The translations under genes and the position numbers were made by a program. From contig NC_092377.1 in NCBI RefSeq assembly GCF_030028105.1, positions 117,762,632 to 117,826,631 of the forward strand: DNA of 64,000 bases. The letters run 5' to 3'. This DNA is from Mobula birostris (lineage: Eukaryota). The notes beneath the pieces are model-generated. The model made no database searches, had not been told where the DNA came from, and saw nothing but the letters and a program-made list of their open reading frames with translations. Below, piece after piece: positions 7,685 through 12,209 of this stretch; position 1 is the stretch's first letter; each line of letters begins with the position of its first letter.

Positions 7685-10600
7685 ATGAAGACCCTCTTGT
7701 TCGTTGCCTTCCTCGGGCTTACTGGTAGGTCCGTTGCTGACAGCCCTCCCTCCTCGTCTTGTCCTTCCCACCCACCTCCTACCTTTTCCTCGTTGCCTAC
7801 CCTCTCTCCCAATCTCTTCTTTCCATTTTCTATCCTCTTTAGACCTCTACACCCCCGCTCAAATATCCGCTACCGTATATGTTCTCCTCTTCCCTCCACC
7901 CTCCTTTCCCCAGCCCCCTCCTACTCTCCCCGTCCCTCTCAGCACCCTCTTTTCCTCTCTACCCTTCCCTATCCTCCACCTTTTCCTATCAGCTATCTCC
8001 CTGTTCCCTCGACTTCGCCTCTTCCTCACATCTCCCTCTCCTACCTCGATCCCTCCCTCTCCCTCCTTATCCTCATTCCTGTCTCTTCTTCCCATCTGCC
8101 CCACCAACTCTCCCCTCCTCATTTCCACCACACACCTTACCTCCTCTCCCTCTTCTCCTCTGCACCTTTCCTTCCCACATCTCACCCTCTACACTTCGCC
8201 CCATCTGACTCTCGACCACACTCGGTTTCCTTCTCTCCCTCCCCTTTCTCTCTCTACTCACCATTACTCCCCTTACAATCGGTCTAACCATGTTCTCTGC
8301 CCCCTCAGCCGCCGCTCCCACCAGCGACGACGACAAAATCGTCGGGGGATACGAGTGTCCTGAACACTCCACCCCCTGGATCGTCTCACTCAACGTCGGC
8401 TACCACTTGTGTGGCGGGTCGCTCATCAGCGAGAACTGGGTGGTGTCCGCTGCCCATTGCTACAAGAGGCAAGTCTGGCAAAGGGTAGGGGAACAGTTTA
8501 GGCCCAGTCGAGCGTACCCTTCCAGCCCCTACACCCCTCACTCAGTGTCTGTAACCTCCTTCGGGCCTACACTCTTCCCGTCTCTGTGATGTTCTCCGGC
8601 AGCTGCACCTCTTCCCGTCTCTGTGATCCCATCCGGTTCATACACACTTCTCCATCTCTGTTGCACCCTCTGATCCCTACACCCTCACAGTCTCTCTGAC
8701 CCTCTCCGGCCCCTACATCCCTCACAGTCTCTCTAACCCTCTCCGACCCATACACCCTTCACAGTCTCTCTGACCCTCTCCGGTCTGTATATCCCTCACA
8801 GTCTCTCTGAGTCTCCCCAAGCCCTACACCCCTCGCCGTTTCTGTTGCCCCCTGCACCCTTCTCTTCTCTGTGACCTCTTCCGGGCCTATATGCTGGGGA
8901 CAGATGTATAGCGAGGTTTTCCTGAGGGTTGTAACTAGTCTGCTGCCTCCGCCTCCCCGCAGACGTATCCAGGTGCGTTTGGGTGAACACGACATCACGG
9001 TTGCGGAAGGGACGGAGCAATTCATCGAATCGGAGGTGGTGCTCCGCCACCCCAGGTACGACTACTACACCCTGGACTACGATATCATGCTGATCAAACT
9101 GTCGCAGCCCGCCGCTCTCAACCGCAACGTGGCCGCCATTTCGCTCCCAACGCAGTGCCCAATGGCAGGCGATGAGTGTCTCATCTCCGGCTGGGGCAAC
9201 ACCAAGGACCCAGGTGAGGATCGGGGAGAGGGTGATGGGAAAGTGGGTGGAGGAAGAGTGCAGAGAGGGAGAGAGGTGCTTATGGGGTTGGGGAGATGGA
9301 GGGAAAGGGAGGGGGTGATGGGACAGGGAGAGGAGGAGGGGGAAGGAATGACAGCTGTAAGAGAGCAGGTAAGGGAGAATGAAAAGATGGAGAGAGTGAG
9401 GAGGTACAGATTTAAAGAGAGAGAGAGCTGGCAAGAGTCGGAAGATGGGAGAGTAATAGAGAGAGAGAGACAAAGTGTGACTGCAGGTAAGTGAGAAAGG
9501 ATGAGAAGGGAGCGAACGGGGGAGAGGGTGAGGGGATAGGAGAGCGGGGAGGAGAAGGGTGAAGGAGAGAGATGGAGTCGGGGAGAACGAGAGAGAAAGT
9601 GAGAGTGTGGGTAAAGGAGGAGAAAAGAGAGTGAGGCGAAAGTGGGGTGAGAGGGGGCGGACATAGAGGGAGGAGGGAGGAATGGGGAACGAGCGGAGAG
9701 AAGGAGGGAGAGAACAGCAGTATCAAAGAGAGTATGGGGAGAGAGGTGACAGGAGGGTGGATAAAGAGAAAGAGGGAGAGAAAGTGTGAGATTGTGCGAG
9801 GTGGAGTGAGGGAGCTGGCAAGGAAGAAGGGAAGAGGCGGGGAAGCTCGTAGGAACAGATAGTGGTAGGGAGAGATGCGAGGGGAGAGAGTGTGGGAGAA
9901 GGAGAAAGAGAGAGACGGGAGAGCAAAGGGAGGGAGGAGAGAGGGTGGGCGGGGAGGGAGGTAGAGAGAGAGAGAGCGAGAGCGGTAGAGAGAGCACATA
10001 GGGGAGAGGGAGGGGTGAGAGAGAGAAAGATGGAGGCGAGGGGAGGCAGATGTAGGAAGGTTCCGGGAGTGCACATGAGAAGAGTTTCACATCCAGCGAG
10101 GGAGGGAGGTGGTGTGTAGAAATTCCTCCAGCACCATCAGTGCCATTCGACTCTGGGTCGAGAGACGATGTGGGATCGGAACTGGGGGCGTTTAGCTCCT
10201 GGGATTCAGGGGTTGCGTGGGAAAGAGAGAGGGTGCCTACTGTGATATCTGAAGGCAGTAACAATCCCATTAGATAATGGGTTAGAATAGAGGGGCTGAT
10301 TAGCCTCTCTCATGTCGAGGGACGTCGCGTCGCTTTAGGGAGTGGTTACTGGCTCTGATGTTCTCCCCCCTCCCCCACACCCCGACCTGTGCGTACCCAG
10401 CCGTCAGTAGTGGCCGGTTACAGTGTCTGAAAGCCCCCATCCTCAGCCAGAGGGTCTGCCAGAATTCGTATCCGTGGAGGATCACCAAGGACATGATATG
10501 TATCGGATTCCTGGAGGGAGGCAAGGATTCCTGCGAGGTACAGCAAAACTCGCCACTCCGACCTCTACTCTCTCTCCGTCTCTGTGACTCCTTCCGACCC

Positions 10601-12209
10601 ATCTATATCAATGGTCTGGATGATAATGTGGTAAATTGGATCAGCAAATTTGCTGATGATACAAAGATTGGAGGTGTAGTAGACAGTGAGGAAGGTTTTC
10701 AGAGCCTGCAGAGGGACTTGGACCAGCTGGAAAAATGGGCTGAAAAATGGCAGATGGAGTTTAATACAGACAAGTGTGAGGTATTGCACTTTGGAAGGAC
10801 AAACCAAGGTAGAACATACAGGGTAAATGGTAAGGGACTGAGGAGTAGAGTAGAACAGAGGGATCTGGGAATACAGATACTAATTCCCTAAAAGTGGCGT
10901 CACAGGTAGATAGGGTCGTAAAGAGAGCTTTTGGTACATTGGCCTTTATTAATCAAAGTATTGAGTATAAGAGCTGGAATGTTATGATGAGATTGTATAA
11001 GGCATTGGTGAGGCCGAATCTGGGGTATTGTGTTCAGTTTTGGTCACCGAATTACAGGAGGGATGTTAATAAGGTTGAAAGAGTGCAGAGAAGGTTTACA
11101 AGGATGTTGCCAGGACTTGAGAAACTCAGTTACAGAGAAAGGTTGAATAGGTTAGGATTTTATTCCCTGGAGCGTAGAAGAATGAGGGGAGATTTGATAG
11201 AGGTATATAAAATTATGATGGGTATAGATAGAATGAATGCAAGCAGGCTTTTTCCACTGAGGCAAGGGGAGAAAAAAAACAGAGGGCATAGGTTAAGGGT
11301 GAGGGGGGAAAAGTTTAAAGGGAATATTAGGCGGGGCTTCTTCACACAGAGAGTGGTGGGAGTATGGAATGAGCTGCCAGACGAGGTGGTAAATGCGGGT
11401 TCTTTTTTAACATTTAAGAATAAATTGGACAGATACATGGATGAGAGGTGTATGGAGGGATATGGTCCGTGTGCAGGTCAGTGGGACTAGGCAGGAAATA
11501 GTCCGGCACAGCCAAGAAGGGCCAAAGGGCCTGTTTCTGTGCTGTAGTTGTTCTATGGTTTCTATGGTTTCTACACCTTCCCCGTCTCTTTGACCCCCCT
11601 CCGGCCCTTCTCGCTCCCCGTCTCTGTGACCCCCTCCGGCCCTACTCCCACCCCAACCCCGTCTCTGTGATCAACTCCCTTTCCCAGTGCTAATAGCCTT
11701 CTCTGCTCTGCCATCTCCGACCCCGACAACCTTCCCCTTCCACTATCGGTGGGAGATGGGGGAGAGCTGTAAAGAATTGCACCCCTTCTCCATTTTCCCC
11801 TTCCTCCGATCTCGACCTGTCCACCGTCAATTCCCGCTCTCCGCCATTGCGACCGTGCCTTCAGCTGTCCGATCATTGCGCTGTGGAATTCCCTCCACAC
11901 TCTCGCAAATTGACCAACGCCGCTCCCCCCACCCACCCCACTGCCTGACCCTCAAAAAGGTCCAGCTGCTAGGGGAGGCAGTGAAACATCTACCGAACGT
12001 CCTACGCCTCGGTCCCTTAGAGCCGGTGACGGAATCCATGTCTCCGTCCTTCCCTACAGGGTGACTCTGGCGGACCAGTGGTGTGTGATGGGGTGCTGCA
12101 AGGTGTGGTCTCCTGGGGTGACGGATGCGCCGAGAGGTTTTACCCCGGTGTCTACACTCGCGTCTGCAACTTCGTCTCCTGGATTGAGAAAACGATGGCA
12201 GCGAATTAA
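7685..12209 (+). CDS. PRSS1: Trypsinogen 1 (divergent paralog), 245 aa; exons 7685-7724, 8309-8468, 8963-9213, 10401-10537, 12060-12209
   Basis: Signal [15 protein letters not shown], activation peptide APTSDDDK, then IVGG. Catalytic triad in SAAHC / DIMLIKL / GDSGGP, Asp189 (GGKDSC) and 12 Cys. Exon sizes and phases are typical of trypsinogens, the spliced frame is open, and AATAAA lies at 12252. The symbol is family-level only; orthology was not tested. Confidence 0.95.
8682..8830 (+). repeat. 37-bp intron-2 minisatellite (~4 units)
   Basis: CCCTCACAGTCTCTCTGACCCTCTCCGGCCCCTACAT in tandem. Confidence 0.85.
10601..11573 (+). mobile_element. 5'-truncated CR1 LINE in intron 4 of trypsinogen 1
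   Basis: 'IYINGLD...[11 protein letters not shown]' and 'YCVQFWSP' motifs, tail TTCTATGGTTTCTATGGTTTCT. Absent from intron 4 of genes 2 and 3. Confidence 0.93.

Follow-up and report, generated by a model that had tools for sequence, protein, structure and literature searches.

Whether one member of a trypsinogen cluster in the ray Mobula birostris has been re-specified around its active-site cleft, or has only drifted away from its sister copies, is the question raised by this locus. The window analysed here is a 64,000-nucleotide (nt) stretch of NC_092377.1 that contains three plus-strand trypsinogen genes, the first of which, gene 1, is the subject of this analysis. Five close copies are found in the genome, all with open frames. 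Genes 1-3 lie within the window and gene 4 just past it, and gene 5 is on the opposite strand at a distance of about 270 kb. Gene 1 is a conserved and unusual trypsin paralogue common to two Mobula species. At a probability of roughly 55%, the favoured reading is that gene 1 has been re-specified: its trypsin likely has a lowered affinity for canonical inhibitors and is likely poor at trypsinogen activation, by analogy with other proteases carrying similar residues.

Structure of gene 1 and its orthologue

Gene 1 has an open frame of 245 residues in five plus-strand exons, and its spliced product is identical to record P0036 (trypsin-like, Mobula birostris). Residues are given in what we take to be chymotrypsin numbering, placed via pig trypsin. 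Exon 1 (7685-7724) encodes the signal peptide and falls outside the interval 8309..12209 given for the gene in the initial annotation. Exon 2 (8309-8468) encodes an activation peptide with three Asp and Lys, Ile16, and His57, and is followed by a GC donor. Exon 3 (8963-9213; 251 nt) encodes the calcium loop, the 93-96 loop, and Asp102. Exon 4 (10401-10537) retains Asp189 and carries ten replacements private to gene 1, at 152, 153, 166, 169, Trp174 (10475-10477), Arg175 (10478-10480), Lys178, Asp179 (10490-10492), 183, and Glu192 (10535-10537). Exon 5 (12060-12209) encodes Gly193, Ser195, Gly216, Asp217 (12120-12122), Gly226, and the stop, 3' of which lies an AATAAA (12252-12257). His57, Asp102, Ser195, Asp189, Ser190, Gly216, Gly226, and 12 Cys are all present, in agreement with the initial account of an intact triad, pocket, and cysteine set. 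The splice sites, also described as intact, are borne out by a spliced contig of gene-1 type, but the donor of intron 2 is GC and not GT. This GC donor is found in genes 1-4 (8469-8470, 29930-29931, and 51565-51566 in the window), and gene 5 has GT.

The protein matches the Pfam Trypsin family at 3e-77, and its predicted structure resembles salmon trypsin (template-modelling scores 0.86/0.95). Judged by its signal peptide, acidic activation peptide ending in Lys, six disulphides, and five exons, gene 1 is placed among the vertebrate trypsinogens (peptidase S1A). The S1 pocket being unchanged, the enzyme is expected to cleave after Lys or Arg. The structure, predicted for gene 1 alone, has a mean predicted local distance difference test score of 81.8 and a low-confidence segment at 192-198 (precursor numbering) in the zymogen activation domain, which is uninformative on Glu192. 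Tyr101, which precedes the catalytic Asp102 (gene 1 codon 9078-9080), is found in all Mobula copies, and the other elasmobranch trypsins aligned mostly have Asn at this position. In record P0001 the junction of exons 3 and 4 differs; no coding DNA for this form was found in intron 3, and the record was treated as an annotation variant.

Codon comparison with gene 2 over exons 2-5 gave 24 amino-acid and 10 silent differences, with replacement/silent counts of 4/2, 5/4, 13/2, and 2/2 in exons 2, 3, 4, and 5, respectively. The totals, the 13 versus 2 in exon 4, and the exon-4 peptides reported initially were all reproduced. The ratio of replacement to silent differences per site (pN/pS) over these exons is 0.79, and nonsynonymous differences in exon 4 (15/109 sites) are in excess beyond chance against the other exons (about 14/429; p 1e-4), but not against silent sites (2/29; Fisher p 0.26). 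The 5' end of genes 2-4 is distinct from that of gene 1 (promoter 21-22% apart, intron 1 41%), while introns 2, 3, and 4 of gene 1 are largely just 3-4% from the other copies, and the gene bodies have therefore been homogenised by gene conversion. Therefore, a two-gene comparison cannot tell which copy has changed. Stingray, electric ray, skate, and shark trypsins served as outgroups to polarise the changes, in an alignment of 157 rows of which 137 are full-length non-Mobula trypsins (38 from elasmobranchs and 99 from other vertebrates).

Eleven of the 24 differences are derived in gene 1 (110, 152, 166, 169, 174, 175, 178, 179, 183, 192, and 217) and eight in gene 2 (27, 49, 79, 93, 96, 164, 170, and 204); two positions changed in both genes (95 and 153), and three are ambiguous in direction (41, 60, and 154). 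The ancestral Arg93 and Tyr96 sit in gene 1, and most of the 93-96 loop difference arose in gene 2. Gene 1 is consequently not simply the derived copy that it had been taken for. Trp174, Asp179, Glu192, and Asp217 each occur in none of the 137 non-Mobula trypsins, in which Gln192 is found 135 times and Gly174 124 times. The changes avoid conserved sites, as only 1 of the 13 gene-1 changes falls at a position at least 95% conserved, compared with 100 of 223 positions overall (p 0.005). The mature protein has 18 Lys and Arg residues, versus 13 in gene 2.

The orthologue in M. hypostoma (record P0038) keeps Arg166, Trp174, Arg175, Lys178, Asp179, Ile183, Glu192, and Asp217, and additionally has Val17Ile and Lys188AMet. 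In the protein tree, the two gene 1 orthologues pair at 100/98 within a Mobula clade (100/99) that excludes two stingray proteins. The frame is open and the splice sites are kept in both species. In sequencing run X10 (related organism B), a 744-nt contig joins exons 2, 3, 4, and 5 with 3, 5, 4, and 7 differences to gene 1, respectively; its exon 4 differs at 17 sites from the gene-2 type, and intron 2 of gene-1 type has been removed by splicing despite the GC donor. The six replacements listed for this contig are those of P0038. Run X15 covers gene-1-type exons 4 and 5. Runs X17 and X18 matched only a transposable element of intron 4 (described below), and give no evidence either way on gene 1 expression in M. 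birostris. Among 63 matches to short fragments from other rays, no gene-1 type was found by identity (best 80% over half of the query). In agreement with the initial reading, gene 1 is not a decaying gene: it is intact, has a spliced contig and an orthologue in a second species, and its changes avoid conserved sites.

Proposed effect of the cleft residues

Five of the 13 gene-1-private changes (60, 174, 175, 192, and 217) fall at inhibitor-contact positions (p 0.016), on a contact list in which 174 was included by choice. The claim that the changes concentrate on inhibitor and substrate loops is upheld to this extent as a mild enrichment, but most of the 93-96 loop cited in its favour changed in gene 2.

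Glu192, Asp217, Arg175, and Trp174 likely shift the subsite preference of gene 1, by analogy with other proteases. With Glu192, the enzyme would forgo one contact with the loop of the inhibitor, like thrombin, in which this residue has been measured to hinder BPTI and TFPI; both were bound much better by the thrombin mutant E192Q (PMC2230226). A basic inhibitor residue, for example Arg39 of BPTI, would be repelled by Arg175; bovine trypsin bonds this Arg39 through Gln175, and in mesotrypsin Lys175 makes the contact unfavourable (PMC8532158). Trp174 would add bulk at S4. Human cationic trypsin (PRSS1) has, like gene 1, an acid at what we take to be position 217 (Asp218), and unlike gene 1 it keeps Gln192. 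Asp217 would repel the acidic activation peptide and lead to poor autoactivation, as Asp218 is described to do in the human enzyme (PMC5487703). A negative charge near S2' also weakens SPINK1 binding to human trypsins (PMC7949130). In combination, these residues would weaken the binding of canonical inhibitors, disfavour acidic residues near the cleavage site, and make the enzyme a poor activator of trypsinogen.

Human mesotrypsin (PRSS3, trypsin IV) is, like gene 1, a minor duplicate with changes near the active site and a basic residue at 175. An identity of gene 1 with the PRSS3 type is ruled out by Gly193, found in both Mobula species in place of Arg193, and by Tyr39 in place of Ser39 (implied by an S39Y structure entry). 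Mesotrypsin resists canonical inhibitors (PMC8532158), a property that has been measured in it and is predicted in gene 1 from residue analogies. Gene 1 may work like mesotrypsin or like rat P23. The latter, a rodent enzyme of separate origin, has an acidic residue at 192 and would be the closest precedent for Glu192; we know of no Trp174, Arg175, or Asp217 in it. Both rat P23 and mesotrypsin have been described as inhibitor-resistant trypsins (PMC13409851). Engineered factor Xa-like bovine trypsins, which carry Glu217, are near the top of the matches for gene 1 exon 5. Thrombin and the factor Xa-like proteins are multidomain clotting enzymes or engineered products, whereas gene 1 encodes an ordinary trypsinogen from five exons and lacks the 60-loop of thrombin. 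A trypsin-like record from Carcharodon carcharias (P0114) has Arg192, Arg193 (the mesotrypsin signature), and Ser217; the record may reflect convergence, a dead copy, or an error in the gene model.

Selection, gene conversion, and the element in intron 4

Purifying selection has acted on gene 1 between the two species after its change. Eight replacements (P0038) and nine listed silent changes (X10) give a replacement-to-silent rate ratio (omega) of about 0.26 (p 0.006), or 0.21-0.29 with 11 or 8 silent changes instead of nine, an estimate that conversion may bias. Changes common to both species, assigned to the stem, comprise 12 replacements and 3 silent changes, versus 1 and 4 later on the lineage of the window (p 0.03). 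This pattern fits a burst followed by constraint, without proof of it. M. yarae is the sister species of M. birostris. Its split from M. hypostoma is placed at about 20 million years in a 2026 mobulid genome preprint (10.64898/2026.10.27.761883). The proposed history is that a burst of change would have followed the split from stingrays and preceded the parting of the two Mobula species, and that purifying selection would afterwards have also rejected conversion tracts crossing exon 4.

Several results weigh against a re-specified gene 1. The codon models came from the author's own code rather than codeml and used a fixed tree of five paralogues, which gives low power. Over exons 2-5, the gene-1 branch has an omega of 0.43, versus 1.11 elsewhere; exon 4 alone gives 1.22 (p 0.81 for a difference from 1), and gene 1 shows no signal in the branch-site test (twice the log-likelihood difference, 0). 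An omega above 1 is therefore not shown for this branch: the whole gene lies below 1, a result that the initial annotation had itself named as refuting its idea, and exon 4 is not distinguishable from 1. The stem omega is 1.17 (p 0.55), and the stem does not differ significantly from both later lineages together (p 0.08). Eight of the 13 private changes lie outside inhibitor-contact positions. The 137 comparison trypsins are nearest matches only, with many isoforms and close relatives and with human cationic trypsin left out. Run X10 was taken as RNA by guess, at low depth, and with no tissue given. Structure entries show human cationic trypsin, which has the acid at 217, crystallised with BPTI and SPINK1; therefore, Asp217 alone does not amount to resistance. 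The resistance of thrombin also depends on its 60-loop (PMC2230226), which is absent from trypsin.

A site test over the five paralogues (M2a versus M1a; p 0.002, 16% of sites at omega 5.2) was not counted for gene 1, because its top sites (93, 95, and 96) are not private to gene 1 and because gene conversion inflates such tests (PMC3924837). In the branch-site test, gene 5 gives a stronger signal than gene 1 (p 0.04).

The same conversion offers the main competing explanation, in which gene 1 is an ordinary trypsin drifting in a shadow of conversion: an element in intron 4 would block conversion, and tolerated surface changes would accrue near-neutrally with little functional effect. This reading is considered rather unlikely. 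The element is a long interspersed nuclear element (LINE; 10598..11573, plus strand, ends approximate), presumably CR1-like, which lies about 60 nt into intron 4 and is found in gene 1 only among the five copies. It is 5'-truncated, broken, and about 1 kb long, was delimited by alignment, shows a weak RVT_1 match below the Pfam cut-off, and is 96-97% identical to the best 39 of 5916 candidate copies. A conversion-escaping stretch (10061..10575, plus strand) spans exon 4 and flanking intron. Gene-1-private intron sites number 25/316 beside exon 4, versus 6/593 in the 5' part of intron 3 (Fisher p 1.3e-7), so the island takes in intron DNA, and the private replacements of exon 4 (10/109) occur at the flanking intron rate (p 0.41), which again weighs against re-specification. 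A local divergence peak is present at exon 4, and the nearby LINE confounds its cause, since insertions halt conversion and selection leaves a divergence peak (reviewed in PMC3924837). The primate red/green opsin pair is, like gene 1, a case of conversion-homogenised duplicates with a divergence peak at one exon; its flanking introns stay alike, whereas the intron beside exon 4 of gene 1 is raised as well, where the LINE confounds (PMC3924837). Drift is also favoured by the fact that no test puts omega above 1 on gene 1, and by the fast evolution of all five copies (one-ratio omega 0.83).

Drift accounts poorly for other observations. Replacement at a neutral rate far exceeds what a conserved exon allows, as 19 of the 46 positions of exon 4 are nearly fixed, and Gln192, 99% conserved, was replaced and the new residue then retained. 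Three points lean toward selection. First, the island is asymmetric: homogenisation restarts about 180 nt beyond the 3' side of the LINE, and the island reaches about 500 nt on the 5' side, across exon 4. Second, the LINE probably does not predate the shared amino-acid changes, because it is 3-4% from its nearest copies, less than the 8-10% of the island and near the interspecies silent distance of 5.7%, on a rough estimate. Third, the Asp217 codon lies 550 nt beyond the LINE in a homogenised stretch, and gene 5, which has no LINE, has nevertheless diverged in its exons only. The first description of the cluster had overlooked gene conversion and the LINE next to exon 4, as well as two further paralogues, one of them more strongly remodelled. 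If re-specification is false, the locus is still a clear case of gene conversion and a LINE mimicking selection.

Further readings and the neighbouring copies

A wider version of re-specification holds that manta and devil rays independently evolved a mesotrypsin-like, inhibitor-evading trypsin through clotting-protease residues (Glu192 as in thrombin, acid 217 and aromatic 174 as in factor Xa), together with a second specialised trypsin, gene 5 (Lys70, Arg225, and Asn228), behind a promoter of the same type. The change would have accompanied the switch to plankton feeding or an arms race against inhibitors of prey or gut parasites. This version is doubtful as a whole, and the driver of change (prey inhibitors, gut parasites, or the ray's own inhibitor) is a matter of speculation. 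If gene 1 does resist inhibitors, it would be the third independent inhibitor-resistant trypsin after those of human and rat, in a cartilaginous fish and via position 192. It would show how few routes lead to escape from canonical inhibitors, let the Glu192 rule of thrombin be examined in a natural trypsin, and point to a candidate digestive adaptation of filter-feeding rays. In literature on Mobula trypsin, on inhibitor-resistant trypsins of elasmobranchs or stingrays, and on trypsinogen conversion with selection, gene 1 was not reported by title or abstract, with subscription journals mostly outside this scope; the main text of the 2026 preprint (10.64898/2026.10.27.761883) contains none of the terms trypsin, PRSS, and protease.

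Genes 1 and 5 share a promoter, exon 1, and intron 1 (1-2.5% apart; promoter 1%). Exon 1 of gene 1 is identical to that of gene 5, and about half of its silent sites differ from genes 2-4. The putative promoter of gene 1 (7592..7635, plus strand) contains what we take to be an E-box (7592-7597), a GATAA (7610-7614), and a GATAAA (7630-7635). The last replaces the TATAAA of genes 2-4; gene 5 also has GATAAA, with the E-box shared upstream, and the substitution may lower or redirect the expression of both genes.

An improbable alternative is that gene 1 serves zymogen safety or a narrower processing job, in which the acids at 192 and 217 prevent trypsinogen activation, possibly in another tissue via the distinct promoter. 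It agrees with the repulsion of the acidic activation peptide by Asp218 of human cationic trypsin (PMC5487703) and with the promoter common to the two remodelled genes, but Arg175 and Lys178 would select for acidic P3-P4 residues and not against them, and Trp174 is left unexplained. Decay under relaxed selection, or copying of exon 4 from an older paralogue, is very improbable and largely refuted: the rare residues at conserved 174, 179, and 192, the exon 4 omega near 1, and Val17Ile and Lys188AMet in the orthologue would suit it, but the frame and splice sites are kept in both species, the changes are not spread neutrally, a spliced contig exists, selection between species is purifying, no donor was found among 12 genome matches for exon 4 or 17 for exon 5, and silent divergence in exon 4 is 2/29, compared with 21-41% for the old 5' ends.

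Gene 2 (29124..32786, plus strand; exons 29124-29163, 29770-29929, 30570-30820, 32005-32141, and 32637-32786) is an intact conventional trypsinogen, and gene 3 (50761..54555, plus strand) is its recent tandem copy. Both are carried by a recent tandem duplication of an about 21.6 kb unit (19539-42429 versus 42622-64000; 97-98% identical). Gene 4 (about C9:117,844,720-117,848,730) is a mosaic, with the 5' end and exon 4 as in genes 2-3 and the 93-96 loop as in gene 1, and it carries Lys178 through a different codon from gene 1. Gene 5 (about C9:118,039,660-118,043,400, minus strand; records P0167 and P0168) is intact in both Mobula species and, like gene 1, encodes a remodelled trypsinogen: its calcium loop carries Glu70Lys, Pro225Arg and Tyr228Asn are present, and the 62-66 strand is altered. 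The residues it has lost, Pro225 and Tyr228, are found in 137 and 135 of the 137 other trypsins, respectively. Its exon 4 differs from that of gene 2 by 12 replacements and no silent change.

Skate records P0060 and P0173 have Asn for Lys before the mature start and a single Asp in the activation peptide, which would change the mode of activation. Minus-strand remnants of a second trypsin-like family are carried in the tandem unit (26157-26305 and 27478-27693; 49119-49334) and are broken, with a frameshift and an altered active-site motif in the last exon. A fuller, damaged-looking copy of this family lies at about C9:117.852-117.862 Mb.

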